From Candidatus Lloydbacteria bacterium RIFCSPHIGHO2_02_FULL_50_18 (GTDB taxonomy: Bacteria > Patescibacteriota > Minisyncoccia > Phycocordibacterales > UBA6899): DNA of 64,000 bases. The position numbers and the translations under genes were made by a program. Positions 1 through 39,235 of this stretch are shown here, one piece after another. Positions within the stretch are counted from its first letter, which is position 1. Each line of letters starts with the position of its first letter. The notes beneath the pieces were generated by a model. It had not been told where the DNA came from. It did no database searches and was given only the letters and a program-made list of their open reading frames with translations. The stretch lies in contig MHLM01000006.1 of assembly GCA_001821395.1 (NCBI GenBank), forward strand, positions 1 through 64,000. Reading direction: 5' to 3'.

Positions 1-289
1 ACTCCTTGCAAGGTATTCGGAGCATGTTGCGTTTCAAGATAGAATTTAAGTGCACTCATCGCAGCCCTCATTTATTTGGCGATAGCAACAGTTCTACAAT
101 AATAAGTTTAGGATATTTGAATCTCATCCTCACTCATCACATAATCGATTTCGAATCCTGTGTGATGATTAATAACTGCACCCGCAGGAAGAATACCTGT
201 TTTTCCCCTTATTCGTTCGCGTAATTTAACTATTTTAGTGACAGATGACGCACATATTCAACCTATTCAGTCAAAAACTTTCTATACCG

Positions 290-346
290 AAAAGCGACCC
301 TTATCGGTCGCCTCTTGAGTCTCTGCGTCGGGGGTGCCTATAGGGA
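290..346. repeat. Putative attL: 57-bp direct repeat of the tRNA-His 3' end plus terminator hairpin (54/57 identical to 21303..21359)
   Basis: aaaagcgaccc..tcgggggtgcctataggga recurs at 21303..21359 with 3 mismatches; contains the tRNA-His acceptor/T-arm 3' fragment in the same orientation as the tRNA. Confidence 0.75.
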
Positions 347-5131: not shown

Positions 5132-5888
5132 GACGGGAGATGTGATCGCGCTCGGTGATCACATCCTGATCTGTGGAGATGCGACAAAGGTTGACCTCGC
5201 GAGCATTGTGAAAGGCAGAGTCCACCTTGTCCTCACCGACCCGCCGTATGCGATCGACTACGTGGCGAGCAAGCGCAACATCGTCGGCGTGTCGAAGGAC
5301 AAGGATATTGCGAACGATGGCTTCATGAGTGATGCAGAGTATGTGACATTCACGAAGGGGTGGCTCACGCCAGTACTCCCCCTCCTTGAGAAGAAGAACA
5401 GCATCTACGTCTTCAACTCGGACAAGATGATCTTCGCTCTGAGGCAGGCATTCGTGGAGCTCAGGCTCAAGGTGGCACAGCTCATCATTTGGGTGAAGGA
5501 TCGCGCCATCGTCGGGAGACTCGACTACCTCCCACAACATGAGCTCATCCTCTATGGATGGCACGGGACCCACGACTTCAAGCGCGGGAAGGACAAGTCA
5601 GTCATGTTCGTGCCGAAGCCATCACGCAGTACGCTTCACCCCACCATGAAGCCGATCCCTCTCCTCCGCAAACTCATCTTGAACAGTACCGATGTGGGTG
5701 ACGTGGTCTATGACCCGTTCGGAGGGAGCGGATCGACGCTCATCGCCTGCGAACACACGAAGCGCAGATGCGTCATGGTGGAGATGGATCCCGAGTACTG
5801 CGCAACGATCGTTCGTCGCTACGAGCAGTTGATTAACCGCGAAGACAATGGCAAGCAAGCACCCCACAGTACTGGAAAAGCGAATTGA
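5091..5888 (+). CDS. Beta-class DNA methyltransferase (DPPY)
   Basis: LTDPPYAIDY (motif IV) then DPFGGSGSTLIA (motif I); overlaps the upstream MTase by 41 nt. Confidence 0.8.
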   Translation: MKNSPETKQSSSIKTGDVIALGDHILICGDATKVDLASIVKGRVHLVLTDPPYAIDYVASKRNIVGVSKDKDIANDGFMSDAEYVTFTKGWLTPVLPLLEKKNSIYVFNSDKMIFALRQAFVELRLKVAQLIIWVKDRAIVGRLDYLPQHELILYGWHGTHDFKRGKDKSVMFVPKPSRSTLHPTMKPIPLLRKLILNSTDVGDVVYDPFGGSGSTLIACEHTKRRCVMVEMDPEYCATIVRRYEQLINREDNGKQAPHSTGKAN

Positions 5889-6246
5889 TGCCCAAAAGGA
5901 AAAGGTTATCGAGTTCCTTGCTGAATCCGGCAACATCAGCTTCGCATGCAAGCGAGGGGGTATCAGTCGCGAGACATACTACCGATGGAGGGACGATGCG
6001 AGGTTTGCGGCAAAGGCTGACAGTGCCATTCAGTCGGGCAAGACCTTCGTGAACGACCTTGCCCACACCCAGCTCATCCGCAAGATCCAAGAGGGTGACA
6101 TGCAAGCGATACGCTTCCATCTCGTGAACTGCCATGACGACTATCGCCCGAAGCTGCCCGAGCGCATCGAGCGCGTGGTGCCGATCACTGCGGTGGAGAT
6201 CATTCAGGCGAGCCATGACTGCAAGAAAGAGGTTAACGCCGAGTAG
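5848..6246 (+). CDS. Phage terminase small subunit-like HTH protein (P27 family-like)
   Basis: GNISFACKRGGISRETYYRWRDDARF..AIRFHLVN pattern typical of TerS-type HTH proteins; no large terminase nearby. Confidence 0.55.
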   Translation: MASKHPTVLEKRIDAQKEKVIEFLAESGNISFACKRGGISRETYYRWRDDARFAAKADSAIQSGKTFVNDLAHTQLIRKIQEGDMQAIRFHLVNCHDDYRPKLPERIERVVPITAVEIIQASHDCKKEVNAE

Positions 6247-6982: not shown

Positions 6983-7014
6983 ATATTGCTCTAGCGGGTT
7001 GGCAAATATGCTCG

Positions 7015-7581: not shown

Positions 7582-7740
7582 AATTTGCTCTAGCGGGGTT
7601 TAAAGCGGGGAGGTAAGCAAAAGGCTCCCAGCCATTGCGATGGTGCCTTTCGGCGACCACCCGTATCCCTTTCGAGACACGACCCGCTAGAGCGACTCTG
7701 ACTGGGAGTCTTTTATTCTCTAGCGGGGATTTTCGACCAT
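7582..7740 (-). promoter_or_regulatory. Structured leader or small RNA with three copies of the CTCTAGCGGG motif able to form alternative pairings, plus nested hairpins
   Basis: CCCCGCUAGAG (from 7718-7728) and CUCUAGCGGG (from 7683-7692) form a 10-bp stem; a third copy (7588-7598) lies 9 nt before the AUG of 7015..7581; GAAA and CGCA tetraloop hairpins between them. Confidence 0.4.
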
Positions 7741-7809
7741 ATCCTAAAGCGTGAGCCGTAGGGGTTAGGTCTCCTATTAAGTTGTACTTGGTATTGTACG
7801 GCATATAAA

Positions 7810-7847
7810 GAAACCGCTCAACCTTAGCTTAGATCAAGCGGTTTGCG
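7810..7847 (-). terminator. Hairpin downstream of the RM operon (AAACCGCT..AGCGGTTT), a possible terminator
   Basis: 8-bp stem with an 18-nt loop; followed on the minus strand by a weak CTTTATAT tract. Confidence 0.3.
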
Positions 7848-7868
7848 AAGCAGAGTTACCAACAGCAA

Positions 7869-9023
7869 TTAATCAACCAGTTGGTAAAAACAGTTAGTTA
7901 ATTGGCGAATTAATTCTGGATAAATAGCGTCAAACGAGGAACCTTCTGGAATACCCAGCCGCTGACATACTGATACTAAGGCTTCAAATTTTTTCTCGTC
8001 ACTTACGGCATGGAGAAGATTTACCCGAAGATCGTACAGAACAAATAATGGGGAAACTATTTTGTGGACGTCCTTTTTAGGAAACTTCAGGCTAAACAGT
8101 AGTTCAATCCTCTTTAGTCCACCCAAATTTTTGGGGTCACCACCCAGCTTAATTATGATTGCCCCAAGATTGCTGACATCCAAAGATTCAATATTTATCT
8201 TATTCAAAAGATCCACGATATCCTTTTGCTCCTTTTCCGTATGAAGGACCGGTGGATTAAGTTTGGAGATGGATTGAATGGTCTCGTTTGTTAAATGACT
8301 CACCTCAAGTCCAAACTCTTTTGTACAAAACTCTAGGAATACAGACCGAGCATTAATTAACTTATCTTCAGGTGTATAGTCAGTAAATTTAACTTCAATC
8401 TGGCCATCATAGAACTCACTTCCAATGTCGTGGTCAGACTCAATATTTTCTGAACGCAGATAGTATTGCTCAGACTCATCTAGCGTGGCCATGTCACCAA
8501 GCCACATTATTACTTTTCCAGACTTGTTTACACCAAAAGATATATCGAAATCCTTTCCGCTGTAAATACTCCCATAGGTTTTTGAAGCAAATCGCACTCT
8601 ATAATCGGAATGGTTCTGGAATTTGAGCAGCACAGATTTTTTAAAAAATACAGGAGTTAAAAACCCAGAATTGTGATCTCTTTGCAGTCCAGGTATATAA
8701 TAGTAATCATCCGCATCATAAATAAATTTAACTTTTGTAAATCCAAGGTCCTCAACTATCTTCCTTCGATTACTGAAAATAGTATCCCGGTGTTCCTCAA
8801 GCGCCTTTTGGTGTAAATGAATGATCACAAATCTACTGTGATCAGGAAAATATTTTAAATCACATGATCCACAAAATAGATACGGTAGGGCTTGAATTGA
8901 TATATTTATTCCTGACACCAGTTCGTTGAAATCGAAATATTTCAAAACCATCGACTGTCCGCAATTTTCACAATATATACGCTGAACTTTTCCATCTTCG
9001 GGAAAGATATCCTTTATATCCAT
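7869..9023 (-). CDS. Uncharacterised zinc-ribbon protein that is the last gene of the type I RM operon
   Basis: 384 aa; N-terminal CENCG..CGSCD; 3-bp gap after the hsdR stop; no Walker motif, so not PrrC-like. Confidence 0.55.
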   Translation of the reverse strand: MDIKDIFPEDGKVQRIYCENCGQSMVLKYFDFNELVSGINISIQALPYLFCGSCDLKYFPDHSRFVIIHLHQKALEEHRDTIFSNRRKIVEDLGFTKVKFIYDADDYYYIPGLQRDHNSGFLTPVFFKKSVLLKFQNHSDYRVRFASKTYGSIYSGKDFDISFGVNKSGKVIMWLGDMATLDESEQYYLRSENIESDHDIGSEFYDGQIEVKFTDYTPEDKLINARSVFLEFCTKEFGLEVSHLTNETIQSISKLNPPVLHTEKEQKDIVDLLNKINIESLDVSNLGAIIIKLGGDPKNLGGLKRIELLFSLKFPKKDVHKIVSPLFVLYDLRVNLLHAVSDEKKFEALVSVCQRLGIPEGSSFDAIYPELIRQLTNCFYQLVD

Positions 9024-9026
9024 AGA

Positions 9027-11996
9027 CTAGTAATACTGCCTTATGTACTCATATGCTTTATCAAACAAAATATTATCTTTATGTAAGGCGTATTTATAGA
9101 GCGTCTTGCGAAGTGCCTGCTTGATCTCTCTCTCACCTGCTGCGGTACTCTGCCAACCCGGGAATCGTACAACTTTAACGATTCCATCTATGTCATTCAC
9201 TATGCGTTCTACTATTACAGGAGTTTGGTCAGTTTTGAGTTCAAGAAAAAGTTCGGAAAGAGCGGTCTTGGCACCATCTCTGCGTGTTTCTGTCTCAACT
9301 TCTTTTTCAGCCTGGACAGTTTCCTTCGCCAATTGAATAAGGTCTTTCAAAAACTCAATACTGTTAATTAGGCCCCGCTCAGCCTTATCCCTTAATTCCT
9401 CCAAGCGTTGACCAAGTGCGACAAAACGGGGGTCACCTTTGTGGCGAAGAAATCTCTTTGTAATCTCGATTTCAATTAGCTTAATTTTTTTCTTGTCAGT
9501 AGTGTGCATCAAATCCTCGATAACCTCTGCATCCAGAACTATTTCTTCGAGATGATCGTCAACTCCTTGGACGTGAATGTGTTCATGAATGAGTTTCATC
9601 GTCTGAGCACCAAGTGCATGCCAGAGAAGCCGACCTGTTTCTCCAGAGGGAGGGCGCACGGATTCATACACCTGCGATAACCATGTGTATTCATTCTGAA
9701 ATTTATTCAATATCGGATCTGGAGACAATGCTTCCCATATTTTACTTAAAACCGAGTAGTCCGCAGCATAGGCATCTCGTTTCTCGTCGGTATTTAAACA
9801 ATCCTGAGCTAGCAAAAGGCCTTCATAGCCCACCACAGATCGGTCGATGCCATGAAAATGACCGAGGCAAGTATTAACTGCTCCCTGAAGCTCATTTTTT
9901 AACTCGTTGAGATTTGTGATTACATACCGAACACTGGCATCGTCAAACTCGAGAGCTTTTGCAACATCATCGAATACGCCAAAATAATCCACGACTAATC
10001 CGTATGCCTTATCTTTATATACACGATTAGTGCGGCAAATGGCCTGTAGAAGGTTGTGATCTTTTAGCGCCTTGTCGAGATACATACACTGGAGAATCGG
10101 CGCATCAAACCCTGTAAGTAATTTAGCAGTAACGATCAAAAACTTAAGAGGATGCTCAGGATCCCGGAAGTTGTCGAGAAGTTTTTCCTGGTCTTCCTTG
10201 CTCATCTCATACTTCTGCTTAAGCATGGTGTCTGTTTCGCCCTTGCCGCCCGTTGAGATGACCACCGCACTTGCTTCCGGAGGTAAAATCTTATCAAGTT
10301 CTTGCTTATAGAGGTCACAGGCGTATCTGTCAGGAGTTACGATTTGGGCCTTAAAGCCCTGCGAATCAATTTTTTCTTGAAAATGTTTTACAACATCTTT
10401 AACGATTGTCTCAATGCGAGCAGGAGATTTAAGAAAAGCAGACATCTTTGCCGCTTCCTTTACCAAGCTCGTTCGATCGTCTTCTGAAAGATGTTCTGTC
10501 ATCTGGTCGAATTCAGCATCAATCAAGTCTCTGTCAACGTGAACATTCAATAGGCGCGGTTCGAAGTGCAGAGGGAGTGTTGCCTTGTCGCGAATTGAAT
10601 CCTGAAAAGTATATCGGGTCATGTAACCCTGATCATCTTCTTCGGCACCAAATGCCCAGAACGTGTTTCTTTCTGTTTTGTTGATAGGGGTACCAGTCAG
10701 ACCAAATAGGAATGCGTTCGGCAGGGCATCGCGCATTTTACGACCAAGATCACCCTCTTGTGTGCGATGAGCCTCATCTACCAAGACAATGATGTTTTCT
10801 CGTTCATTAAGCACGCCTCCAGCCTCAGCAAATTTAAAAATGGTAGTTATAATAATCTTTCTCGTATCCTTGTTTAAGAGATCGTGGAGTTCTGATCGTT
10901 TATCTGTTGACACAACATTTGGTATCTCTGTTGCGTTGAAAGTTCCTGTAATTTGAGTATCCAAATCGACTCGATCAACCACAACGAGAACGGTGGGGCT
11001 TTTTAATTCTTGAGATCGACGGAGCTTCTGCGCTGCAAATACCATCAATAGTGACTTACCAGATCCTTGAAAATGCCAAATGAGTCCCTTCTTCGGCCTA
11101 CCCGCCTTTACGCGCTCAATGATCAGGTTTGCGCCCTCCATCTGTTGGTAGCGGGCTATTATTTTTATCCGCTGCTTTCGCTTGTCTGTCGCAAAGAGCG
11201 TGAAGTTTTGAAGCAAGTCCAAAACAACTCCTGGATCAAGTGCTCCGGAAATCGCTTGTTTAATTTCAGAAAGACCCGCAATGGCACCTTTTGAGTCACG
11301 CCAAGGCCCCCACAACTCGAGCGGCATACGAATTGAGCCGTAACGGAATGTTTTACCCTCGGTTGCAAACGAAAACACATTTGGAACAAATAGTTGCGGG
11401 ATTGTATTTTCGTAATCGTCGTGAATATCGATCGCGCCGTCGAGCCAAGAAATAGAGGGGCGCACGGGTGTCTTAAATTCTCCCACGACGAGCGGAATTC
11501 CATTAACCAACATCACCAAATCGGGACGTTTCTCAGCCTTGCCTTGAACGGTGTACTGATTTGTGACAATGTATGTATTTTTCCCCAAGCTATCGAAATC
11601 AATAAAACTGATCGAAACGTGCTCATTATTTTCGCCAAACGGCATTGTCTTGTCACCACGGAGCCACGCAGAAAATTCTTCGTTCGCTCTAACGAGACCG
11701 GATGTTCCGACCGAGAGAAAGATCGCTCGTATTTTATATAAAACTTCGTCGGCTTTATTGGGGTCAGCTGCAATATCCGGATTAAGACGAATCAGAGCGT
11801 CTTTTAATAGCGACTCAACGATTGCATCTTTGGCTTCGCGCTTGAGTTGAGAGGAGGGAACGTATTGCCACTTCAAACCAGGGTGAAAAGCACTATCTGG
11901 GGCAAGATAGTTTGAATCCTGCATAAGCTCCGGGCTTATGCCGGTAAGTTCGTTCAAGATAAAGTGTTCGGTTGTATTTATTTCGTTAAATTTCAT
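9027..11996 (-). CDS. hsdR: Type I restriction enzyme R subunit
   Basis: 989 aa; SF2 helicase motif I FQGSGKS and DEAH box VLVDEAHRTQ; position after hsdS. Confidence 0.9.
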   Translation of the reverse strand: MKFNEINTTEHFILNELTGISPELMQDSNYLAPDSAFHPGLKWQYVPSSQLKREAKDAIVESLLKDALIRLNPDIAADPNKADEVLYKIRAIFLSVGTSGLVRANEEFSAWLRGDKTMPFGENNEHVSISFIDFDSLGKNTYIVTNQYTVQGKAEKRPDLVMLVNGIPLVVGEFKTPVRPSISWLDGAIDIHDDYENTIPQLFVPNVFSFATEGKTFRYGSIRMPLELWGPWRDSKGAIAGLSEIKQAISGALDPGVVLDLLQNFTLFATDKRKQRIKIIARYQQMEGANLIIERVKAGRPKKGLIWHFQGSGKSLLMVFAAQKLRRSQELKSPTVLVVVDRVDLDTQITGTFNATEIPNVVSTDKRSELHDLLNKDTRKIIITTIFKFAEAGGVLNERENIIVLVDEAHRTQEGDLGRKMRDALPNAFLFGLTGTPINKTERNTFWAFGAEEDDQGYMTRYTFQDSIRDKATLPLHFEPRLLNVHVDRDLIDAEFDQMTEHLSEDDRTSLVKEAAKMSAFLKSPARIETIVKDVVKHFQEKIDSQGFKAQIVTPDRYACDLYKQELDKILPPEASAVVISTGGKGETDTMLKQKYEMSKEDQEKLLDNFRDPEHPLKFLIVTAKLLTGFDAPILQCMYLDKALKDHNLLQAICRTNRVYKDKAYGLVVDYFGVFDDVAKALEFDDASVRYVITNLNELKNELQGAVNTCLGHFHGIDRSVVGYEGLLLAQDCLNTDEKRDAYAADYSVLSKIWEALSPDPILNKFQNEYTWLSQVYESVRPPSGETGRLLWHALGAQTMKLIHEHIHVQGVDDHLEEIVLDAEVIEDLMHTTDKKKIKLIEIEITKRFLRHKGDPRFVALGQRLEELRDKAERGLINSIEFLKDLIQLAKETVQAEKEVETETRRDGAKTALSELFLELKTDQTPVIVERIVNDIDGIVKVVRFPGWQSTAAGEREIKQALRKTLYKYALHKDNILFDKAYEYIRQYY

Positions 11997-13138
11997 GTAA
12001 TTACTTGAGTGAGGATTGCGTTTCGCATCGCCCTCGTTAGTTCGATAGAATTTTGCAACTGCTTCTTGATCTCCGTAAGTTGAGCAAGGTTCCTGAGAAT
12101 ATCTTTTTGCTTCTCGAGAGTAGGAACATAGATTTTATACTCGGAAACAATCTTATGAGATATGCGAGGCATCTTTGTCCCAAACCCCAGGGAAACAGCA
12201 TAGTGAATGAAACCATCAGAGTGTAGGTGGTGGAGAACGTATTCAATGTCTATATCAGGCGTTGCATCATACACAAGCAATTCCGTTGTACAGACTCCAT
12301 CAAATGATGGAATAACAGCCTTATCCAAATTGGGGCGTAGCTTGCTATAGAGCAATTGCCCGCTTTTGAAGACGTTGCAAGAGGACTGTGATTGTTGAGC
12401 GTCGCCATAAGCATCTACATTAAACGACCCTGGTTCAATATGCTCCAAACCTAAGTATTTCTCAAGTTTGTGTGGCGGAGCACTCTTCATCTTTGAAAGT
12501 TTTAAACATTCGCCTAGTTTTTTCCTGTCTAGTTTATTCTTAGTGAGTTCAGCAAAAATTGTCTTGAGTGTCAAATTTATTTTGTCCGCCGCGATTCTGT
12601 ATTTCTCTTCCAATTGATCTGACGCTATCAAAAGACCCAGTATTTTCTTCTGTACCTGACGGGGTGGCAGAAGAAATTTCTGTTGCGCAAGAATTTTCCA
12701 TTTAATGGTCGGTGAAAGTGAGCCTTCAGAGATATCTATCGCCCGATTCATAAATGCGTCAGAATGCATAAAGAATGGAAGAAAATCTGGTTCAATATGG
12801 GATGAATCTGCGCGGACGACCATCGCATGTGCGGAGCAAATTCCATCAAACTCTGCTATGGAGGCTTTTCTCTGGTATGCACGCCGTTTCCCAAAGATTA
12901 TGTCCCCTTTATATACACGAAGCTTGACGCCTTTTACATCAGACGGCACGCCGAATCGACGGATGTGAATAGAGTCGGAATCTAGATGTTCAAGACCAAC
13001 ATAAATATCGGCATCGGAACTGTTCGGGTCAACCCTTTCAGAGATATTCTTCGCTATATCACCAAACTTAGCCAACTCCCAATCGGAGCGGTTATGTTTA
13101 ACGAAAATATTTTCAGCTTGTTTATTAAGAGTTTTCAT
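11993..13138 (-). CDS. hsdS: Type I RM specificity subunit
   Basis: 381 aa with two TRD-like halves and conserved central/C-terminal repeats; operon position. Confidence 0.8.
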   Translation of the reverse strand: MKTLNKQAENIFVKHNRSDWELAKFGDIAKNISERVDPNSSDADIYVGLEHLDSDSIHIRRFGVPSDVKGVKLRVYKGDIIFGKRRAYQRKASIAEFDGICSAHAMVVRADSSHIEPDFLPFFMHSDAFMNRAIDISEGSLSPTIKWKILAQQKFLLPPRQVQKKILGLLIASDQLEEKYRIAADKINLTLKTIFAELTKNKLDRKKLGECLKLSKMKSAPPHKLEKYLGLEHIEPGSFNVDAYGDAQQSQSSCNVFKSGQLLYSKLRPNLDKAVIPSFDGVCTTELLVYDATPDIDIEYVLHHLHSDGFIHYAVSLGFGTKMPRISHKIVSEYKIYVPTLEKQKDILRNLAQLTEIKKQLQNSIELTRAMRNAILTQVIT

Positions 13139-14612
13139 ATGTTTTTTTGTCTAACATCTCTAAGAGAGATCGGGATCCCCTTTTTAGGTCAGAACTATTC
13201 TGAGACCATTCCTCTACTACCACTCGGAGTCCTTTTTCTTTAATACCATTCCCTTGAGTAGATATGTAGAGCGGAATATTAAGATTTGCGTTATTGTTGA
13301 GGATATTTTGATTGTCGATCACTTTCGTAAAATTTGGTATATCAATAAATTCCTTAAATGCTGCATGAATTCTTTCAACATGTGGATCTTCAAGAAAAGA
13401 AAAAGCATTCTGCCGCGTTACTTCTTTAACAGCATTTATAAAAAGTACTCTACCTTTTCGTTCTTTAGGTTTGTCCCAACGGCAAACCAACAAGCAGGCC
13501 TCCATGGGTGAGTTGTAAAATAGATTTGGGCCCAAACCGATGACTGCTTCGATTACGTCATCCTTTAGCATTTTTTCTCTGAACTCCCGCTCAGAATCAC
13601 GAAAGAGAACCCCGTGAGGCCAAAGGACAATGCTCCGGCCGTTTTTCTTGTCTAGGCTTTTGAGAATATGCTGCTCAAAAGCATAGTCTGCACATCCTTG
13701 TGGAGGGGTGCCGTAAATGTTTCTCCCGTAAGGATCATTCGTCCACGCATCTCGATTCCACCTCTTAACTGAATACGGCGGGTTCGCAAGGATGACGTCG
13801 AAGGTTTTAAGTTTGTCGTCCTCCAAAAACTTTGGGCTAGACAATGTGTCTCCACGCTCAATATGAAAGTCCTCGATTCCATGAAGAAACATGTTCATTC
13901 GCGCGATGGAGGATGTCATCAGATTCAACTCTTGCCCATAGAGCTTAAGCGTTCGGTATTCTTTACTCTGGTCCTTAAGTTGGTTTACGCAGTTCAGTAA
14001 TAACCCACCAGAACCACAAGTTGGATCGTATACGCTCTCACCTGGCTGGGGGTTCATTATCAAGCTCATTAAACGAACGACCGTACGATTGGTGTAGAAC
14101 TCAGCAGCTGTATGCCCACTATCATCTGCAAACTTCTTGATAAGGAATTCATATGCATTACCAAGTTCGTCATTGGGAACATTGGCAATGCTTAGGTCTT
14201 GTTCAGAAAAATGTTCGAGTAGGTCTATTAGAATCTCGTCAGATAGACGACTCTTGTTTGTCCAAGAGGCGTCGCCAAAAATACCGAATAAACGATCCTC
14301 GTTCGTCTTTTCAATTTTGCGGAGCGCCTTCTGTAGGGCATCCCCCACATTAACCGTCACCTGTCGAACATCATTCCAGTGTGCCCCTTTGGGAATTTGG
14401 AATCTATGATTTTCATCAAATTTTGCATATTCTTTGTCGCCCCCCGATTCATTGAGTGCCCGCTCGTATTCTTCTTTGTAGACATCACAGATGCGCTTAT
14501 AAAATAATAAGGGGAAAATATATTGCTTGTAGTCTCCAGCATCAATGACACCACGAAGAAGTGTCGCCGCTCCCCAAAGATATCTTTCCAGTTCTTGTTT
14601 TTTAATAGCCAT
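13125..14612 (-). CDS. hsdM: Type I RM N6-adenine methyltransferase subunit (paralog 1)
   Basis: 495 aa; VYDPTCGSGGLLL (motif I) and ILANPPYS (motif IV). Confidence 0.9.
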   Translation of the reverse strand: MAIKKQELERYLWGAATLLRGVIDAGDYKQYIFPLLFYKRICDVYKEEYERALNESGGDKEYAKFDENHRFQIPKGAHWNDVRQVTVNVGDALQKALRKIEKTNEDRLFGIFGDASWTNKSRLSDEILIDLLEHFSEQDLSIANVPNDELGNAYEFLIKKFADDSGHTAAEFYTNRTVVRLMSLIMNPQPGESVYDPTCGSGGLLLNCVNQLKDQSKEYRTLKLYGQELNLMTSSIARMNMFLHGIEDFHIERGDTLSSPKFLEDDKLKTFDVILANPPYSVKRWNRDAWTNDPYGRNIYGTPPQGCADYAFEQHILKSLDKKNGRSIVLWPHGVLFRDSEREFREKMLKDDVIEAVIGLGPNLFYNSPMEACLLVCRWDKPKERKGRVLFINAVKEVTRQNAFSFLEDPHVERIHAAFKEFIDIPNFTKVIDNQNILNNNANLNIPLYISTQGNGIKEKGLRVVVEEWSQNSSDLKRGSRSLLEMLDKKTYENS

Positions 14613-14613
14613 A

Positions 14614-16101
14614 CTATTTTGATATCAGAGAAAACCCATCTAAGAGTCTTTTGAGTTCTGTCTCAGCCTCCCATACCTCCTCGAGAGAATTCTTCAACTC
14701 TTTCGTGGCCTCTTCTACTGACGGGAGTGTCTTACCTGAAATCTTTTCAATATAAAGAGAAATATTTAGGCTCCAATCATTTGCCGCAATGTCTTTGAGG
14801 GTTGCCACCACGGCGTGGTCTTTAACACCCTTGAACGCAGAGTACCAGTCGAAAATCTGATCAACATGCCTCTGCTCAAGATAATTTTGAGCACGATCCA
14901 CGCGCACCTGGTCTGATGCGTCTATAAACAAAACCTTACCTTCTTTGTTGTCAGGCTTATTAGCACGAAATACTAAAATGCATGCGGCAACTGTTGCTCC
15001 ATAGAAGATATTAGGCCCAAGTCCTATCACTGCTTCAAGCGCATCTGTCTCTATTATTTTCTTTCTTATTTGTCCTTCTCGACCCTTGCGAAATAGTGCG
15101 CCATGAGGAAGAACCACGGCTATGCGTCCGCGAGGATAAGACATGGATTTGATCATGTGTTGCACCCACGCGTAATCTCCATAACCAGCTGGTGGTACCC
15201 CTGCAAAATTTCTACCGTATGGGTCCTGAATCCAAAGGTCATCACCCCACTTCTTTAGGGAGAAGGGTGGATTAGCAATAACGCAATCAAAGGTCGAAAG
15301 TTGATCGCCTTCATAGTATGCGGGACTTCGTAATGTATCTCCACGCTGAATTTGGAAGTCCTGAACATCGTGGAGGAACATGTTCATGCGAGCAATGGAT
15401 GAAGTGGTGAGGTTTTTTTCCTGTCCAAATATTTTTAGAGTGCGGGCGTCCTTACCATGAGAGCGTAGGTGCTCAACACAATTGAGTAGCATGCCTCCCG
15501 TACCACAGGCTGGGTCATATACAGTCTCACCTTCTTTTGGATCAATTATACGGCCCATGAGCTGAACAACTGTTCTCGGTGTATAAAACTCCCCCGCTTT
15601 CTTGTTTGTTAAATCAGCAAACTTTTTTATGAGGTATTCGTATGCCTGACCGAGCATGTCGAGGTCGACCGTTCCGTTTGCCAGCTTGTATTCAGAAAAA
15701 TGTTCAATAAGTTCCACCAATAAGCTGTCGGGCAACTTCTCCTTGTTGGTCCATTGTGCATCTCCAAAGATCCCATACAGAAAATCAGGATTGGCTTTTT
15801 CAATTTCACGAAATGCATACTGAAGCTTTGCTCCAACATTCTTTGTGGTGGCGCGCACATCTGCCCAATGACATCCATCAGGAATTATAAATCTATGGAA
15901 TTCTGGCAAAACTGCGTAACCCTCATCGCCCTTAGATTCTTCTAATAGCTTTTTATATTCATCATCATAAACATCTGAAAGTCGTTTAAAAAACAGGAGT
16001 GGAAAAACATATACCTTAAAATCAGCAGCATCAACTGGCCCCTTGAGTATCCATGCGGCTTGAGCGAGATGTTGTTCGAGTTGTGGGAGTGTCAATTTCA
16101 T
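14614..16101 (-). CDS. hsdM: Type I RM N6-adenine methyltransferase subunit (paralog 2, roughly 50% identical to paralog 1)
   Basis: 495 aa; VYDPACGTGGMLL and IANPPFS; collinear with paralog 1. Confidence 0.9.
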   Translation of the reverse strand: MKLTLPQLEQHLAQAAWILKGPVDAADFKVYVFPLLFFKRLSDVYDDEYKKLLEESKGDEGYAVLPEFHRFIIPDGCHWADVRATTKNVGAKLQYAFREIEKANPDFLYGIFGDAQWTNKEKLPDSLLVELIEHFSEYKLANGTVDLDMLGQAYEYLIKKFADLTNKKAGEFYTPRTVVQLMGRIIDPKEGETVYDPACGTGGMLLNCVEHLRSHGKDARTLKIFGQEKNLTTSSIARMNMFLHDVQDFQIQRGDTLRSPAYYEGDQLSTFDCVIANPPFSLKKWGDDLWIQDPYGRNFAGVPPAGYGDYAWVQHMIKSMSYPRGRIAVVLPHGALFRKGREGQIRKKIIETDALEAVIGLGPNIFYGATVAACILVFRANKPDNKEGKVLFIDASDQVRVDRAQNYLEQRHVDQIFDWYSAFKGVKDHAVVATLKDIAANDWSLNISLYIEKISGKTLPSVEEATKELKNSLEEVWEAETELKRLLDGFSLISK

Positions 16102-16331
16102 TTTGGTGACGATGTCAGCTTTTCAACGGTAGTCCCCAGAGCTGTGGCAATTTTTACCATCGTTGCCACTCGGGGATCAGGAGTGAGTCCGCTCTCAATC
16201 TTCGCAATGGTGTGATAATCAAGGCCGGTTTTCGTAACCAGCTTGCTCTTAGACAATCGCTTTTCATTTCTAATTTTTCTCAAGTTTCCTGCGATATTTG
16301 AGAATTTTTTTGGGTGAGATTTCTTTTTCAT
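16098..16331 (-). CDS. XRE-family HTH protein; candidate controller (C) protein of the RM operon
   Basis: 77 aa HTH_3-like (LSKSKLVTKTGLDYHTIAKIESG); 4-bp overlap with hsdM. Confidence 0.7.
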   Translation of the reverse strand: MKKKSHPKKFSNIAGNLRKIRNEKRLSKSKLVTKTGLDYHTIAKIESGLTPDPRVATMVKIATALGTTVEKLTSSPK

Positions 16332-16488
16332 ACGACAACCTTGCTTAGCATAATTATACCAAATTTATTGAGTTTTTGCTGCAATAAAAAGTGGATAAAA
16401 ATAGGGCTATTTGAGGGATGGTTACCAACAGCTTACCAACTGACCCTCCCTGGACTCCCTGGGAGGGTTGCGTCATCAATTGGTGTGT

Positions 16489-17844
16489 ATGAAAAATACA
16501 AACCCGCTAGAGGGCTCTGACGAGCCGAAAATTAAGTACTGTTTATACGCTAGAAAATCGAGCGAATCGGACGAGCAGCAAGCCCTTTCGATCGACTCCC
16601 AAGCCAAGGAGATGCTCCAGCTGGCGCAACGAGAGGGGCTTGATGTGGTCGACATCAAGCGCGAGTCGCACTCCGCAAAAAGCACCGGGCAACGCCCGGT
16701 CTTCAATGAGCTGATCAGCGACCTCAAGGAGGGCAAGTTTAATGCCATTCTCGCATGGCATCCGGATCGCTTAAGCAGAAATGCAGGCGACCTCGGTGCT
16801 ATCGTCGACCTGATGGACGAGCACCGACTTATCGAAGTGAGAACCTTTGGTCAAAAGTTTACAAATAGTCCAAGCGAGAAGTTTCTACTCATGATTCTAT
16901 GCTCGCAAGCAAAGCTTGAGAACGACAACAAGGGCGTGAACGTGAAGCGGGGGCTACGAGCAAAAGTTGAGATGGGACTATGGCCATGCGTTGCACCGAC
17001 CGGATACATCAACGACCGCATGCCTGGGCGTGCAGGATATGTGCTCGTCGACCCGGTGCGTGCTCCGATTATCAAGCAAATATTTGAAAAGGTCGGCAAT
17101 GACCGATGGAGCGCTAGGACGGTTTATAAATGGATGGTCAAAGAAGGAAAGTTCAATAGCGTGAGAAAAGGAAATAAGGCACTCACCCTGAGCACAATCT
17201 ATCGACTTCTGCATCAGCCTTTCTATTCGGGAACATTCGAGTACCCCACCGGGAGCGGTAACTGGTACAAAGGTCAACATGAGCCACTCGTTTCCAAGGA
17301 ACTCTTCGAGAAGGTGCAGCAAAAAATAGCGGAGGAGTTGAAGTCAAAGAAACAATATCAAGAATTCACCTTCACGAACCTTATGCTCTGCGGATACTGT
17401 GGGTCAGGTATTACCGCACAATCAAAAGACAAAAATCTCAAAGATGGGAGCGTCAAAAGTTACACCTACTACAACTGCACGCACAACAAGGATCACTTCT
17501 GCAAAAACCCGTTCATTCGCGAAGAAGAACTTCTCAAACAGATCGATGAGATCTTCGACAAGATCGATATCGACGAACTTGGAACACGGCATATCATTGA
17601 AAGAGAGGTTGCGCGATACAACAACATTCGGGCAAAACTCCTCGGCGCAAAAGAAAATGACAAAGCACTCGACGTCGACGTGCGAAACTATGCCAAGTAC
17701 ATGCTCAAAGAAGGCACGATGCTCGAAAAACGCGAACTCCTAGGGTGCCTAAAAAATAGAATTATTCTGAAGGATAAAACGATAACGCTTGAAAAAAGTT
17801 TGCAAATTAATGACTTAACGCCACAAACACAGATAGCACGCTGA
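16489..17844 (+). CDS. Large serine recombinase (resolvase domain, recombinase domain and zinc ribbon)
   Basis: YARKSSESDEQQALSIDSQ catalytic Ser region; C-terminal CGYCGS..YYNCTH; an alternative TTG start exists at 16468. Confidence 0.85.
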   Translation: MKNTNPLEGSDEPKIKYCLYARKSSESDEQQALSIDSQAKEMLQLAQREGLDVVDIKRESHSAKSTGQRPVFNELISDLKEGKFNAILAWHPDRLSRNAGDLGAIVDLMDEHRLIEVRTFGQKFTNSPSEKFLLMILCSQAKLENDNKGVNVKRGLRAKVEMGLWPCVAPTGYINDRMPGRAGYVLVDPVRAPIIKQIFEKVGNDRWSARTVYKWMVKEGKFNSVRKGNKALTLSTIYRLLHQPFYSGTFEYPTGSGNWYKGQHEPLVSKELFEKVQQKIAEELKSKKQYQEFTFTNLMLCGYCGSGITAQSKDKNLKDGSVKSYTYYNCTHNKDHFCKNPFIREEELLKQIDEIFDKIDIDELGTRHIIEREVARYNNIRAKLLGAKENDKALDVDVRNYAKYMLKEGTMLEKRELLGCLKNRIILKDKTITLEKSLQINDLTPQTQIAR

Positions 17845-18172
17845 GGATGACGAGTATCTTCACCCCACCTCCATACACAATCCAAGTAAATAATTTTTTT
17901 GCAGCAAGCATAACTATTCCGAGCACCAGAATGGAAACTCCAACGCCCGTGAGTGGGTCGTGCAATCCTTTCATAGGAGCATGAGTCCAAACAAAAAATA
18001 TACCTACGACAACCATAAGCCGCGCAATTATGTTAAACCAGCTTATGGAATCTTCGTGGCCAAAAGGAGCACCTCCTATGCCAACTTTCTTAGCAAAGAA
18101 GACACGAGTTACTGCTCCGGCAACACTTGCGATAACACGAATTACTAACTGTTGGAAAAAACTCCCATCCAT
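17807..18172 (-). CDS. Small four-TM membrane protein, last gene of the Ubl/E1 operon (candidate effector)
   Basis: 121 aa with four hydrophobic helices; 1-nt gap after the JAB-E1 stop; convergent 38-nt overlap with the recombinase 3' end. Confidence 0.5.
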   Translation of the reverse strand: MDGSFFQQLVIRVIASVAGAVTRVFFAKKVGIGGAPFGHEDSISWFNIIARLMVVVGIFFVWTHAPMKGLHDPLTGVGVSILVLGIVMLAAKKLFTWIVYGGGVKILVILSVLSVFVALSH

Positions 18173-18173
18173 A

Positions 18174-19565
18174 CTATTTTAAGTTCTCATCAAAAACTTG
18201 ATAACTATCATCATTTGAGTCTCCTTTTCCGGTAAATTCTGAGAATGGGCAATTTGGCAAGCAGTCTTCACCGAGTTTTCTTTCCAGCTCCCCGGTAACA
18301 AAATGGTATAGATTTTCACCGTGATGACTTATGCCGTTGGGTTTTACTACAAGTGCCAACATCTGTAGCACCATCATTGAGGCGAGGTGCATGCTAAAAG
18401 CAAAAACGTTTTGATTGTTCAAGTGATGGCGCAAACCGTCAACGGTGTTTATGTACTCCGAATCATCCAGCAGACCTTTGCGTTCAAGAGACACTTCAGC
18501 AAAGGTGTACTGCCCAATGCACGAGAGACATTTATTACCCGGGGTTGCAGTGTGCGCACGCCAATCCGCTGAGCGCAACAAATCCTCCTTGGTGTGCACT
18601 CGAATACCACCATCAACGACTGGAATCAGGTGTGTATAAGCAATGTAATTAAGAACGTGGCGCGCCCACGGCCTATCAACGCAACTGAACAGGAGGTCAC
18701 AATTTAGTGCACCTCGGTATCCCTCAGCTCCAGTTACATGAACTGGTAATCGTGTGACGAAAAAGTTGTCGGCAGTTGCGTGTTCAATAAGTCTTTTTGC
18801 AATTACATCCGTCTTCAATTCACCAACATCTTTTATCGTCGCATGCATAAGTCGATCGAGGTTGTGTTTCTTTACTACGTCAAAATCGATAAGCGAAATA
18901 TGCTGAACTCCAGTTCTAGCAAGTGCCTCAGCAATAGCACTTCCGACACTTCCCGTGCCGACTATTCCTATGTGTAAACGAGATAATTCGTCTTGCTTAT
19001 CTTGACCCCATGAAGAAATTGTACGTTTCAGTTCTTCTCTAAAACCCTGCGGCTTAAGCAGCGCGTCACAATAGGTGATAGAAAGGCCCATTTGACCTAT
19101 AGTGCGAACACTCTCGCACCATGATGGAGCATATTCCCGAACCCCGGTTCTATTCCAAAAACGAGCACTCCACGCACCATCTGTGCCTATAGTTAGTCCA
19201 AGGAGGGGTCGTTCTGTTATTCCAAAGGTTGCCGCAGCGTGCGATAACTCCGCCCGAACATCGGTCCTGCTCATATTCTGCCATCCAGGAAACGGGTGGC
19301 TATGCATAAAAGCAAGGCCCATATCTCGGGCGGATGCTATTTGTAGTGCTCTCTGAAAATACTCGGGAGAAAAACTCGCGTTGCCATGCACTTCCCGCTC
19401 TCCGTCTTCAGGAAGAATCGGTTCAACCAAGAGTGCTGTCAGTCTTTCTCCTCCGCTGCTCGGCTGCCACAAAGCAAAACATAAGTCTTCCTGCCCATCC
19501 TTACGCACAAGATGAGAAAAGAGTTTCTGGTTTACCTCGGTTGTCATCGCTACGCTGTATCTCAT
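18174..19565 (-). CDS. JAB/MPN (JAMM) metalloprotease fused to an E1-like ThiF/MoeB adenylyltransferase
   Basis: N-terminal HSHPFPGWQNMSRTD (HxH..SxxD JAMM motif); then GIVGTGSVGS..IDFDVVKKHNLDRL E1 Rossmann motifs; C-terminal CxxC pairs. Confidence 0.8.
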   Translation of the reverse strand: MRYSVAMTTEVNQKLFSHLVRKDGQEDLCFALWQPSSGGERLTALLVEPILPEDGEREVHGNASFSPEYFQRALQIASARDMGLAFMHSHPFPGWQNMSRTDVRAELSHAAATFGITERPLLGLTIGTDGAWSARFWNRTGVREYAPSWCESVRTIGQMGLSITYCDALLKPQGFREELKRTISSWGQDKQDELSRLHIGIVGTGSVGSAIAEALARTGVQHISLIDFDVVKKHNLDRLMHATIKDVGELKTDVIAKRLIEHATADNFFVTRLPVHVTGAEGYRGALNCDLLFSCVDRPWARHVLNYIAYTHLIPVVDGGIRVHTKEDLLRSADWRAHTATPGNKCLSCIGQYTFAEVSLERKGLLDDSEYINTVDGLRHHLNNQNVFAFSMHLASMMVLQMLALVVKPNGISHHGENLYHFVTGELERKLGEDCLPNCPFSEFTGKGDSNDDSYQVFDENLK

Positions 19566-19924
19566 AGTGTGTTGAGGAGTTTTATAACGTGAGCAAGGTA
19601 AACATCGACGTTACGTTTACTACTTTCCCAGCTCGGGTGCGGCCTACTAAGATGCATCCACTCAGGGCCAAAATCACTGTCGTGAATTCGATCACGATGC
19701 TCCTGTGATGAGGTGTTGGTGGGCAACGTACGCGGATGAATATGTGGGCCGTGGGGAGCAGTCAGCTCAAAGTCTCCTGGGACATCTACCCCAACGCGAA
19801 CTGTCTTGCCTGCAAGAGTTCCTTCGTTGACAGACAGCGCAAATGCCAGCCGATTGCCTTCAAGGTTTTCAACCTCAAAACCAAGATTCTTGAGACCTTG
19901 AATAAATTTTTCTTTGCCGCTCAT
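19562..19924 (-). CDS. E2/UEV-like protein lacking a catalytic Cys
   Basis: 120 aa, beta-rich, then PHGPHIHP (HPN-like) and two W.P-like motifs; no cysteine; 4-bp overlap with the E1 gene. Confidence 0.4.
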   Translation of the reverse strand: MSGKEKFIQGLKNLGFEVENLEGNRLAFALSVNEGTLAGKTVRVGVDVPGDFELTAPHGPHIHPRTLPTNTSSQEHRDRIHDSDFGPEWMHLSRPHPSWESSKRNVDVYLAHVIKLLNTL

Positions 19925-19929
19925 GTTGT

Positions 19930-20184
19930 TTACCCCACAGGCGTTTGTCCAGTAAACACCGTGACGAACTTCATGTGATTATGCATCTTGATCACCTCGT
20001 CCAAATCTTTATGCGGTTCCTGCTGATGACCCTTAACCTCAACCAAATAGTACTGCTGCGAATCGACATTCGCCATTGATAATATCTCTCGAACAGACAA
20101 CTCCTTCTTTTCAGTAGTGAGTGTTTCACCGTCGACCGTAAAATCGATACCGTGACCTTTTTCCTCCTTCTCGTGGTTTTCCAT
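19930..20184 (-). CDS. Ubiquitin-like beta-grasp protein ending ...TGQTPVG
   Basis: 84 aa; IDFTVDGE..YYLVEV..KFVTVF beta-grasp pattern; terminal Gly; 5-bp gap to the next gene. Confidence 0.5.
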   Translation of the reverse strand: MENHEKEEKGHGIDFTVDGETLTTEKKELSVREILSMANVDSQQYYLVEVKGHQQEPHKDLDEVIKMHNHMKFVTVFTGQTPVG

Positions 20185-21271: not shown

Positions 21272-21302
21272 CGACCTATCAGGTCTAGAACCTTTAATGC
21301 CA

Positions 21303-21359
21303 AAAAGCGACCCTTCTGGGTCGCCTCTTGGGTCTCTGCGTCGGGGGTGCCTATAGGGA
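21303..21359. repeat. Putative attR: the partner of the 57-bp direct repeat, overlapping the tRNA-His 3' end and its terminator hairpin
   Basis: See 290..346; the GCGACCC-TTCT-GGGTCGC hairpin serves as the tRNA terminator. Confidence 0.75.
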
Positions 21360-21418
21360 ATCGAACCCTAGCTAAAGGCTCCACAAGCCTCTGTGCTAAC
21401 CGCTACACCATAGGCACC
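21346..21418 (-). tRNA. tRNA-His (GTG) with an encoded G-1
   Basis: Acceptor GTGCCTA/TAGGCAC, anticodon loop TTGTGGA, T-loop GGTTCGATTCC, extra 5' G pairing with discriminator C. Confidence 0.85.
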
Positions 21419-38792: not shown

Positions 38793-38855
38793 TCAAGCAA
38801 AGCGCTCTCCTTTGACTAATCAAAATGGCGCCACATGGCGCTCATTTTTAACGGG

Positions 38856-38942
38856 CGGAGGAGGTGAGATTCGAACTCACGGTCCACTTACATGGACGAC
38901 GGTTTTCAAGACCGTTGCCTTAAACCACTCAGCCACTCCTCC
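38856..38942 (-). tRNA. tRNA-Ser (TGA), type II
   Basis: Acceptor GGAGGAG/CTCCTCC, anticodon loop CTTGAAA, long variable arm, T-loop GAGTTCGAATCTC. Confidence 0.8.
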
Positions 38943-39235
38943 CTTATTGCACTCAGCCTCTCTTTCTAAATCGAACGAAACGCACAAATTCATTCGTGCT
39001 CATCACTATACTGAAAAATAGATAATTGGCAAAAGATCAATGTGGTATTGCTAATTCTTTTTTAATCGGAGCGCTTGACAAGCTGAACATATTGTGCTAA
39101 ACTTTCGCTAGTCTTCTTTGAAGAACCGTCTGTGGTCACCCCCGTGTCAATAAAAGCCTTATGGGCATCGGGGTGACCACAACAATACCGTTACCAGCCC
39201 ACGGCGGGTGTCAGCCGAAACTTTAGGAGATCTCC

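Follow-up and report, generated by a model that had tools for sequence, protein, structure and literature searches.

A type I restriction-modification operon in a recurrent cargo slot beside a large serine recombinase gene of candidate phyla radiation bacteria

Composite islands of the staphylococcal cassette chromosome (SCC) encode large serine recombinases (LSRs), CcrAB or CcrC, from ccr genes inside the element, and tandem SCC and pseudo-SCC elements occur in staphylococci at the 3' end of rlmH/orfX. Integrons use a tyrosine recombinase, IntI, an attI site and cassettes bounded by attC sites, which are imperfect palindromes folding as hairpins. Turnover in the variable defence hotspots of temperate phages and satellites, such as those of P2 and P4, is thought to proceed by recombination in the conserved flanks, with no bounding repeats of a specific site, and prophages with serine integrases (phiC31, Bxb1, TP901-1, A118, SPbeta) have attP beside int. 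Here we analyse a locus that can be compared with all four, a type I restriction-modification (RM) operon next to an LSR gene in a 64,000-nucleotide stretch of Candidatus Lloydbacteria bacterium RIFCSPHIGHO2_02_FULL_50_18 (assembly GCA_001821395.1, contig MHLM01000006.1, positions 1 to 64,000; hereafter the window), a member of the candidate phyla radiation (CPR). The operon lies between the gene for a structured RNA, LOOT, and the LSR gene, and is bracketed by direct copies of a short sequence, here called site S. The explanation that we favour, on balance, is that the operon is a cassette inserted site-specifically at S, in a cargo slot that recurs beside related LSR genes, the adjacent LSR being the likeliest catalyst.

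SCC is alike in having an LSR, blocks that often carry type I RM at one site, short direct repeats and tandem arrays, and in the presumed mobilisation in trans of blocks that lack a recombinase. The present locus differs in that its site lies just upstream of the recombinase gene in a prophage-like element instead of in a host housekeeping gene, that the recombinase stays on the platform outside the cassettes, that the host belongs to the CPR and that LOOT forms the other border; in addition, this LSR is only distantly related to known LSRs, and excision is here a prediction. With S between LOOT and the LSR gene and the LSR outside the repeat-bounded cassette, the locus falls outside the SCC type. 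The likeness to integrons is one of layout: the primary site lies just upstream of the recombinase gene, cassettes are stacked on its far side, each cassette ends in a copy of the site, and empty, single and multiple states occur among relatives. However, the enzyme here is a serine and not a tyrosine recombinase, the repeats are short and direct with a phased left arm instead of folded attC hairpins, the cassettes hold several genes with their own promoters in either orientation in place of promoterless single open reading frames (ORFs), and the platform resides on a prophage-like element; there is no IntI-type tyrosine recombinase, and the cassette ends lack attC hairpins. We also considered the integron core site GTTRRRY, which GTTACCA does not fit.

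The P2/P4 hotspots share with this locus a fixed position between conserved prophage-like genes and varied cargo, much of it anti-phage or RM, but here the boundaries are repeats of a conserved recombinase-linked site. Serine-integrase prophages share the LSR domain architecture, a conserved non-coding site directly beside the gene, and the terminal position of the LSR gene in a prophage-like element, which encodes terminase and also turns up among IMG/VR viral contigs; here, in contrast, the chromosomal junction lies at a tRNA gene across the LSR and is unlike S, and S bounds internal cargo. By analogy, the cassette arrangement is integron-like in its architecture, and its enzyme class and tandem repeat-bounded cassettes recall SCC; the LSR-linked cassette slot is a variation on already known cassette systems. 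Literature searches on serine-recombinase cassette platforms and on serine recombinases of Saccharibacteria prophages returned nothing pertinent.

Site S at both ends of the restriction operon

In order along the window, the platform and the cassette comprise the following features (loci other than the window carry an L number).

7642..7771, minus strand: LOOT RNA gene (Rfam RF03000), cmscan 71.4 bits against a gathering threshold of 46.4, model positions 1-121 of 121
7843..7866, plus strand: platform-side (distal) copy of S, composed of TTGCGAAG (7843-7850), GCAGA and GTTACCAAC-AGC (7855-7866)
7867..16409, minus strand: RM cassette body, about 8.5 kb, GC 0.424; same cassette family at the same junctions in L094, L095/L164 and L096
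7869..9023, minus strand: 384-aa protein, final operon gene, without Pfam match
9027..11996, minus strand: HsdR, type I restriction subunit; Pfam HSDR_N, SWI2_SNF2, ResIII, T1R_D3-like; PADLOC REase_I 7e-131
11993..13138, minus strand: HsdS, specificity subunit; Pfam Methylase_S; PADLOC Specificity_I
13125..14612, minus strand: HsdM paralogue 2; Pfam N6_Mtase, HsdM_N
14614..16101, minus strand: HsdM paralogue 1; Pfam N6_Mtase, HsdM_N
16098..16331, minus strand: HTH_3 (XRE-type) controller-like protein, first operon gene; Pfam HTH_3; weak PADLOC match to Control_protein
16410..16432, plus strand: cassette-borne (proximal) copy of S, composed of TTTGAGGG (16410-16417), ATG and GTTACCAAC-AGC (16421-16432)
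16433..16488, plus strand: conserved LSR leader, with TTACCAAC (16433-16440), CTGGACTCC (16450-16458) and GCGTCAT (16470-16476), then ATG; kept in most of about 89 LSR loci
16489..17844, plus strand: LSR, 451 aa; Pfam Resolvase PF00239, Recombinase PF07508 and Zn_ribbon_recom PF13408, in that order

An earlier note on this DNA had reported the 12-mer GTTACCAACAGC as a direct repeat around the operon, and both copies are confirmed, at 7855-7866 and 16421-16432, as the only ones in the whole window with one mismatch allowed. The left copy stops 2 nt short of the stop codon of the final operon gene (TTA, 7869-7871), the right copy precedes the HTH gene (start 16331) by about 90 nt, and a further TTACCAAC, absent from the earlier note, follows directly after that copy. 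As such, a 12-mer repeat is unremarkable in the window, which holds 375 direct 12-mer pairs, and the two copies might be put down to a chance match in AT-rich intergenic DNA. Against this, the probability that these two intergenic stretches (64 and 157 nt) have a 12-mer in common is p ~4e-4 (3.5e-4 to 6e-4), and the same site stands at the same two junctions in independent relatives and in arrays; we regard coincidence as having a negligible probability.

From its sequence and position, the distal copy of S appears to behave like an attL site: TTGCGAAG-N3-5-GTTACCAAC-AG adjoins LOOT not only in the window but also in L012, L028, L066, L069, L094, L095/L164, L096 and L105 and in empty loci. The proximal copy would similarly behave like the left part of an attR site, with counterparts at the same cassette end in L094 (TTTGAGTG..GTTGCCAACAAC) and L164 (TTTTGAAGG..GTTACCAACAG); L011 retains the proximal left arm, though its cargo differs (RadC). 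LSR att sites, about 40-50 bp long, have a non-palindromic central dinucleotide between two half-sites that are imperfect inverted repeats of each other. The proximal site has partial dyad symmetry (GAGGG-ATG-GTTACCAAC-AG-CTTACCAAC-TGA-CCCTC), a dyad not conserved in other loci, and the crossover point can be placed no finer than the shared 9-12 nt. The palindrome that the earlier note had drawn at the left copy exists, with arms TTACCAAC (7856-7863) and GTTGGTAA (7880-7887), but its right arm is coding sequence, giving FYQL at the C-terminal end of the 384-aa protein. We rejected it as a pair of recombinase half-sites or a terminator: because it is coding and is missing in the two more distant cassette relatives L095 and L096, it is incidental.

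The operon itself is read on the minus strand in the order HTH controller-like protein, HsdM, HsdM, HsdS, HsdR and 384-aa protein, and Pfam and PADLOC both match HsdR, HsdM and HsdS, in agreement with the earlier reading of a type I RM operon beside a serine recombinase. Type I RM systems combine a helicase-nuclease (HsdR), an N6-adenine methyltransferase (HsdM) and a subunit with two target-recognition domains (HsdS), whose genes occur together. The two tandem HsdM paralogues are 50% identical, an arrangement kept in all four cassette relatives; apart from these two HsdM genes the operon is an ordinary type I system, but its setting is not ordinary. The operon had also been described as visibly more AT-rich than its flanks; the lower GC is real, but the difference is modest, with 0.424 (7867-16420) against 0.481 in the rest of the island and 0.490 in the chromosome to the right. 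By eye, a leftward promoter region of the cassette is marked by TGnTATAAT at about 16346-16354 on the minus strand. A search with the 384-aa protein brought 754 homologues, among them copies from Vibrio, Shewanella, Delftia and Alteromonas at about 50% identity, and one source names a relative a YgiT-type zinc finger protein. Its gene ends the same type I RM operon in all three relatives' contigs examined, a position that suggests an uncharacterised RM accessory.

The slot in related elements

The exact LSR was found on 11 metagenomic contigs. A wider metagenome scan confirmed 548 LSR relatives, of which 80 were fetched, and an IMG/VR scan yielded 67 viral contigs; homologues in reference genomes come mostly from metagenome-assembled genomes of Patescibacteria (Saccharibacteria, Peribacteria, Colwellbacteria). 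These relatives are prophage-like elements integrated at the 3' ends of tRNA genes, the LSR lying on the side nearest the tRNA, and share a common backbone of a ParB-domain N6/N4 methylase, an HTH (small-terminase-like) gene, a terminase-large-like gene of about 500 aa, one or two leftward genes, LOOT (leftward), S and the LSR (rightward).

In most of these loci, S consists of one to three phased T-rich/AAGG repeats (TTTTGAAGG, TTGCGAAG, TTTGAGGG), 3-5 nt and A-GTTAYCWAC, often followed by AG and a looser second copy; 8-25 nt, CTGGACTCC, GCGTCAT and the ATG of the LSR come next. By its CTGGAC..TTGC the leader might be read as sigma-54-like, a candidate that we dropped on the wrong spacing (judged by eye). 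S lies 60-170 nt upstream of the LSR gene in at least 54 of 89 related loci, and a position-weight scan of the stretch from -200 to -40 relative to the LSR returned 62-71 matches, compared with 2-5 for the other strand, over a background elsewhere of 1-5 per 100 kb; at a low threshold, the background inside long cargo is too high for arrays to be counted reliably. S travels with the LSR gene and not with LOOT: where LOOT stands downstream of the LSR (eight loci), none of the eight has an S between the LSR stop and LOOT, and six have S upstream of the LSR. It accompanies the LSR in every gene arrangement seen, and its orientation is constant relative to the LSR whichever way the cargo genes point (L052, L020). 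The site sequence also tracks the LSR subfamily, with GTTACCAAC/CTGGACTCC/GCGTCAT in one and, in a sister subfamily (L074, L070, L087, L049, L041, L044, L050), borders of TTGCTAAG, the palindrome TGCATAGCTATGCA and CTGTCAT.

The slot is found empty, filled and stacked. The earlier note had suggested comparing island homologues without the RM block, and among relatives the same position is indeed empty, holds other cargo or holds two blocks. Twelve loci are empty, with LOOT 165-232 nt from the LSR match and no cargo between, and in seven of these a single or tandem S lies between the two, as in L007 (..GTCGGA GTTACCAAC AGT GTTACCTAC..). Thirteen loci are filled, with 0.4-9.3 kb of cargo between LOOT and the LSR; cargo flanked by direct copies of S or of a lineage-specific counterpart measures 0.4-9.7 kb. 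A direct upstream copy of the exact 9-mer from the LSR-proximal site is present in 10 loci, in most cases just behind the LOOT-side signature CCTAGCTTAG..TTGCGAAG, compared with 2 reverse and 2 downstream copies in 680 kb as controls, about 2.6 per strand being expected. Rare variants of S are lineage-specific and match at both ends of the cargo (GTTGCCAAC twice in L052, ..CGAC in L047), and lineages with other sites are bracketed too, by a 20-nt exact repeat, TGCATAGCTATGCACCACCA, around 4.2 kb of cargo in L074 (4615 and 8571) and by a 19-nt repeat around 5 kb of cargo in L068. Direct repeats at the cassette ends, with a single copy at the unoccupied sites of relatives, are the arrangement expected of a cassette. 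Counting as cargo the genes that separate LOOT from the LSR or immediately precede the LSR, the slot holds the following.

L008: another type I RM system, a Shedu-like gene and a YgjP-type peptidase
L005: RM-like cluster of a Res-type helicase-endonuclease, an N6/N4 methylase and a GHKL ATPase
L046: DpnII RM, with an RT-trypsin (RT-protease) protein nearby
L004, L066: large helicases
L011: RadC
L068: methylases
L012, L069: small ORFs
L020, L052, L071: the element's own (ParB-)methylase and terminase genes

The search with the 384-aa protein pointed to relatives that carry the same cassette family as the window, with identities of 97% (L094), 85% (L095/L164) and 73% (L096). In all of them LOOT is followed by TTGCGAAG-N3-5-GTTACCAAC-AG(C/T), and the stop codon of the 384-aa gene comes 2-5 nt further on. 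At the far end, L094 reads TTTGAGTG-CTG-GTTGCCAAC-AAC-TTACCAAC and then the LSR, and L096 has a degenerate S, a small ORF of the family f17 with its own leader, S and the LSR. L164 holds an array, in which LOOT is followed by S, the RM cassette of 8.6 kb, S again, a second cassette of about 4 kb with a 157-aa and a 1125-aa gene, a third S and the LSR; here the RM cassette ends in TTTTGAAGG-ACTA-GTTACCAAC-AG and the second cassette is followed by TTGGATTA-GTTACCAAC-AG-..CTAGACT..GCGTCAT and the LSR. This 17.2-kb contig contains exactly three copies of A-GTTACCAAC-AG, all in one orientation and all junctional, and none elsewhere on either strand. The 157-aa gene was considered as a marker of cassette mobility and set aside, since in other genomes it is chromosomal, beside clpP and without S context.

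Cassette and LSR differ in their degree of relatedness. The RM proteins of L096 are 73-87% identical to those of the window and its LSR merely 52%, so that cassette and platform appear to have had separate histories. Conversely, L004 and L005, with LSRs 96% and 91-92% identical to that of the window, align to it only rightward from 16431-16433 and have other cargo leftward. HsdS is 32-45% identical among cassette relatives whose other proteins are 73-97% identical; this subunit has been swapped, with 32% identity even in L094, the 97%-related cassette.

The f17 ORFs (100-122 aa) lie directly upstream of the LSR and co-oriented with it, between two copies of S and with their own S..GCGTCAT leader. 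The members, all without Pfam match, are listed below; the window has no f17 ORF, and the family is a candidate for a recombination directionality factor.

L030, 5876-6211: f17 ORF
L035, 9277-9612: f17 ORF
L041, 3269-3571: f17 ORF
L069, 3740-4069: f17 ORF
L096, 2158-2526, minus strand: f17 ORF

Insertion at S weighed against other explanations

LOOT (leftward) and the LSR gene (rightward) form a conserved divergent pair, the platform, with S between them and the LSR leader (CTGGACTCC..GCGTCAT) after S. In the mechanism that we propose, conservative site-specific recombination would have joined the platform site to a similar site of the incoming DNA and placed the RM operon exactly at S, thereby leaving two direct copies of S, a platform/cassette hybrid at 7843-7866 and a cassette/platform hybrid at 16410-16440, with the 12-mer as the core shared by both. 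Use of the slot recurs: relatives are empty, hold other cargo or, in one case, hold two cassettes parted by a third S. Should the cassette still be excisable, excision is predicted to leave an empty junction reading ..TTGCGAAGCAGAGTTACCAACAGCTTACCAACTGACC.. (search form GCGAAGCAGAGTTACCAACAGCTTACCAACTGACCCTCC) and a circle junction reading ..TTTGAGGGATGGTTACCAACAGCAATTAATCAACC.. (search form CTATTTGAGGGATGGTTACCAACAGCAATTAATCAACCAG). The LSR would be the likeliest enzyme because S goes with its gene, the site sequence tracks the LSR subfamily and about 150 loci show no other recombinase conserved near S. The earlier proposal of an excisable, mobile RM cassette is thereby kept in part: the operon is a discrete cargo block with direct copies of an LSR-linked site at both ends and with empty, other and tandem states in relatives, and it may still be able to leave.

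Several observations weigh against insertion at S. Canonical LSR att sites need two recognisable half-sites, and the right arms of the distal S copies vary among cassettes. One empty locus (L021) has no S at all, and L046, L071 and L088 have none at the LOOT side. S and its leader also precede the f17 ORFs, so that S could be, or could also be, regulatory. The tRNA association makes the LSR family look like an integrase for the entire element, and two classes of site would then be needed; the tRNA junctions contain no S, and their similarity to the S leader, 17.0 for cognate and 16.4 for non-cognate pairs, gives no sign of a cognate relation, on which grounds we rejected S as the att site of the element for tRNA integration. 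No circular or precise empty junction for this lineage was found in viral_contigs, a weak negative that covers assembled contigs only, and the contigs shown with the exact LSR or with a 188-aa protein of the island are RM-linked or end short of the junction. Contig breaks were considered as strain variation at S and discarded as uninformative, those of L002 and L003 falling in the HTH gene and those of L170-L172 in or near LOOT. All four cassette relatives hold the RM operon in place through diverged lineages, and the insertion must therefore be old.

The cargo might instead be exchanged by homologous recombination in the LOOT and LSR flanks, after the manner of P2/P4-like elements, S being a set of pre-existing regulatory or protein-binding motifs. 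In keeping with this, tandem S copies 11-12 nt apart already stand at many empty or LSR-proximal sites (e.g., GTTACCAAC-AGT-GTTACCTAC in L007), and in several filled loci the distal copy is like the first of such a pair (then AG) and the proximal copy like the second (then T). The left arms are phased at about 11 nt, suggesting protein binding, S precedes leftward promoter-like sequences of LOOT, the RM operon and the second cassette of L164 by 40-65 nt (consensus scan and by eye), the f17 leaders point the same way, and the cassette has co-diverged with LOOT in four lineages. Flank exchange, however, does not account for the three copies in the window: the cassette carries its own first-type copy with a left arm (16410-16432) besides the one at 16433, and this cassette-borne copy is kept in L164, where the right neighbour is another cassette and not the LSR. 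The orientation of S fixed to the LSR regardless of cargo, the exact 19-20-nt brackets in L068 and L074 and the rare variants alike at both ends likewise tell against it, and we consider exchange through the flanks unlikely, though a serious rival and the foremost of the alternatives.

Nearly as probable, though also unlikely, is that the LSR serves only as integrase of the whole island at the attL and attR of tRNA-His, with the insertions at S made by another factor, encoded outside the locus and acting in trans, or by a process that involves no recombinase, and with S regulating LSR expression. The LSR is the sole recombinase found on the window's island. This larger island, already assumed in the earlier note, is confirmed: it spans about 21 kb, and its ends are marked by a direct repeat of 86 nt into which the tRNA-His 3' end falls.

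261..346, plus strand: left island-end repeat, 86 nt, duplicating the tRNA-His 3' end and the downstream hairpin
21274..21359: right island-end repeat, overlapping tRNA-His at 21343-21418 (minus strand)

The two repeats are 85% identical, and with the tRNA 3' end repeated at the far border the island is of the tRNA-integrated kind. L004 and L005 are likewise at tRNA-His, L004 with a second small element in tandem. More generally, 44 of 60 loci have a minus-strand tRNA gene (Ser, Gln, Arg, His, Glu, Met and others) downstream, 1.4-7.7 kb from where the LSR match begins, and in eight of them the distance to the LSR stop is no more than about 400 nt. This suggests a serine-integrase family targeting tRNA 3' ends, to our knowledge an uncommon choice among serine integrases. 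Specificity for one pair of sites is the norm in LSRs, and the dissimilarity of the S leader and the tRNA junctions would fit an enzyme that acts at the latter alone. What tells against a role confined to the tRNA gene is the position of S beside the LSR in every arrangement, the shift of the site sequence with the LSR subfamily and the lack of an alternative recombinase conserved near S.

The earlier note had nested the 12-mer within a second pair of repeats, a 20-mer, CCCGCTAGAG(C/G)G(A)CTCTGAC, at 7683 and 16503, at the second copy of which the recombinase gene was said to begin. Both sequences exist (7683-7702 and 16503-16521) and match in direct orientation at 19 of 20 positions, one gap included. 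More than a simple pair is involved, however: the core 10-mer CCCGCTAGAG occurs five times in the window, where 0.04 would be expected.

6989-6998, minus strand: CCCGCTAGAG, 9 nt upstream of the ATG of a 249-aa protein
7588-7597, minus strand: CCCGCTAGAG, 9 nt upstream of the ATG of the 188-aa protein
7683-7692, plus strand: CCCGCTAGAG, hairpin arm of LOOT and left copy of the 20-mer
7718-7727, minus strand: CCCGCTAGAG, opposite hairpin arm of LOOT
16503-16512, plus strand: CCCGCTAGAG, codons 5-8 of the LSR gene

The copies at 6989 and 7588 lie in a duplicated 24-nt leader. Recombination between the 20-mers, excising 7.7-16.5 kb, would draw on their near-identity and on the excess of the core. 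The left 20-mer, however, is the 3' arm (in RNA sense) of a covarying LOOT helix, and the right copy spans codons 5-11 of an LSR whose most plausible start is the ATG at 16489, so that the gene does not begin there and such recombination would remove its start codon. The right copy is kept as LSR coding sequence in L004, L005, L006 and L011, in whose fetched DNA no LOOT was found, and L164 has the LOOT arm with the motif missing from its LSR. The match is not conserved in relatives; we treat it as lineage-specific and not as a recombination repeat, which leaves the 12-mer site as the only set of flanking repeats, and excision at the 20-mers as very improbable, only slightly less so than coincidence for the 12-mer.

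LOOT, the island and the meaning of the slot

LOOT has been described as a metagenome-derived structured RNA with no function assigned (Weinberg et al. 2017, PMC5737381; Rfam 14, PMC7779021), and a literature search on its function found nothing relevant. The copy in the window is a full-length member above the gathering score, with covarying helices; new here is the tie of LOOT to one LSR family in CPR prophage-like elements. Using covariance models built for this analysis, we detected LOOT in 33 of 90 sources, and in an alignment of the 33 loci 94.8% of cells pair, with a covariation of 0.858 against 0.238 after shuffling and about 0.1 in slid registers; 28 of 32 pairs change on both sides, and the hairpin that contains the 20-mer shows compensatory changes.

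7683-7692 and 7718-7727: LOOT hairpin arms, the left arm being the left copy of the 20-mer
7793..7821, minus strand: sigma-70-like LOOT promoter (TTGAGC, 17 nt, TACAAT), placed by consensus scan just upstream of the LOOT 5' end, with putative function
L007, 9657-9780: LOOT beyond the window
L012, 9165-9280: LOOT beyond the window, as in 30 further loci

The linkage of LOOT to this LSR family is tight and takes two fixed forms, divergent and upstream of the LSR (25 loci) or co-oriented and 40-60 nt downstream of the LSR stop (8 loci); in both, a small gene follows LOOT, often one for a membrane or zinc-ribbon protein. In the window, LOOT and the LSR mRNA share an 11-nt perfect complement extendable to 18 pairs, and the three mRNA copies of CCCGCTAGAG (249-aa, 188-aa and LSR) are complementary to the LOOT 3' arm. 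We rejected the idea that LOOT is a conserved antisense RNA acting on the LSR mRNA, the mean complementarity over 33 loci being the same for cognate (6.8) and non-cognate (6.7) pairs, a result that also counts against the 20-mer as a recombination site; any such regulation would be lineage-specific at best.

The LSR has the catalytic resolvase, recombinase and zinc-ribbon domains of a large serine recombinase, and YARKSSESD is read around the expected catalytic serine. Its distant relatives in the PDB are the SPbeta SprA/YokA, TP901-1 and A118 integrases, with a best E-value of 1e-11 (SprA). Some contigs carry two LSR genes, as in L083 (9886 and 12820), where they lie about 2.9 kb apart in tandem, each with its own S leader; IMG/VR contigs with two LSR matches are L106/L112, L122/L127, L125/L131, L104/L139, L135/L140 and L161/L162.

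Elsewhere on the island and in the chromosome beside it, the window contains the following.

3812-5888 and 5848-6246, plus strand: overlapping N6/N4 DNA methylase genes, then an HTH_Tnp_1_2 (small-terminase-like) gene
17807-20184, minus strand, between the LSR and the island end: four leftward genes for proteins of 121 aa, 463 aa (ThiF/E1-like), 120 aa and 84 aa
20324-21271, plus strand, tRNA-proximal island end: XRE-type HTH (116 aa) and ImmA/IrrE Peptidase_M78 (192 aa)
30738-31424, plus strand: IS200-like Y1 transposase (228 aa), in the chromosomal part, near two tRNA-Leu genes
38328-38948, minus strand: ARAGORN 621-nt 'tmRNA*' over tRNA-Ser (38854-38942), with an odd tag peptide and no Rfam tmRNA match, probably a false call

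Methylases homologous to those of the window also carry ParB_N in L020, L046, L052 and L071. Relatives have a terminase-large-like gene at this place; the window's island is without it and without recognisable structural genes, and looks like a decayed prophage or a satellite. We considered the HTH_Tnp_1_2 gene and the family F3, of about 500 aa, as a transposase pair acting on S and rejected the idea, F3 matching the terminase large subunit (weakly), so that these are packaging genes. The 463-aa ThiF/E1-like protein matches PADLOC E1-E2 models at 1e-19. Its cluster, which L004 has kept together with the LSR, is possibly a module for ubiquitin-like conjugation or for defence; no cyclase or effector was recognised. 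The XRE-HTH and ImmA/IrrE pair is a typical derepression module of prophages or integrative and conjugative elements. To the right of the island, the chromosome continues with genes for PrkA, DUF444 and SpoVR.

Beyond insertion of the RM operon at S, we put forward more tentatively that CPR prophage-like elements may carry an integron-like LSR platform, whose dedicated upstream site captures, stacks and possibly releases multi-gene cassettes, often anti-phage or RM, separately from or in addition to integration at tRNA genes, with LOOT, the border on the other side in most arrangements, as a functional part, for example in regulation or site choice. If S is only regulatory, the locus would be an ordinary defence hotspot beside a prophage integrase. 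If it works as a recombination site, it would be the serine-recombinase counterpart of the integron. Serine integrases are widely used as genome-engineering tools; a working S would supply short defined sites (about 25-40 bp) and a compact recombinase of 451 aa for biochemical work, and an integrase that stacks cassettes at its site could have practical uses. For LOOT, without an assigned function since its description in 2017, the platform would provide a genomic context and testable hypotheses. The platform would, moreover, bring an SCC-like cassette system to the candidate phyla radiation, a group in which the biology of mobile elements is almost unexplored, and would explain the exchange of whole defence systems among these small-genome bacteria or their prophages.

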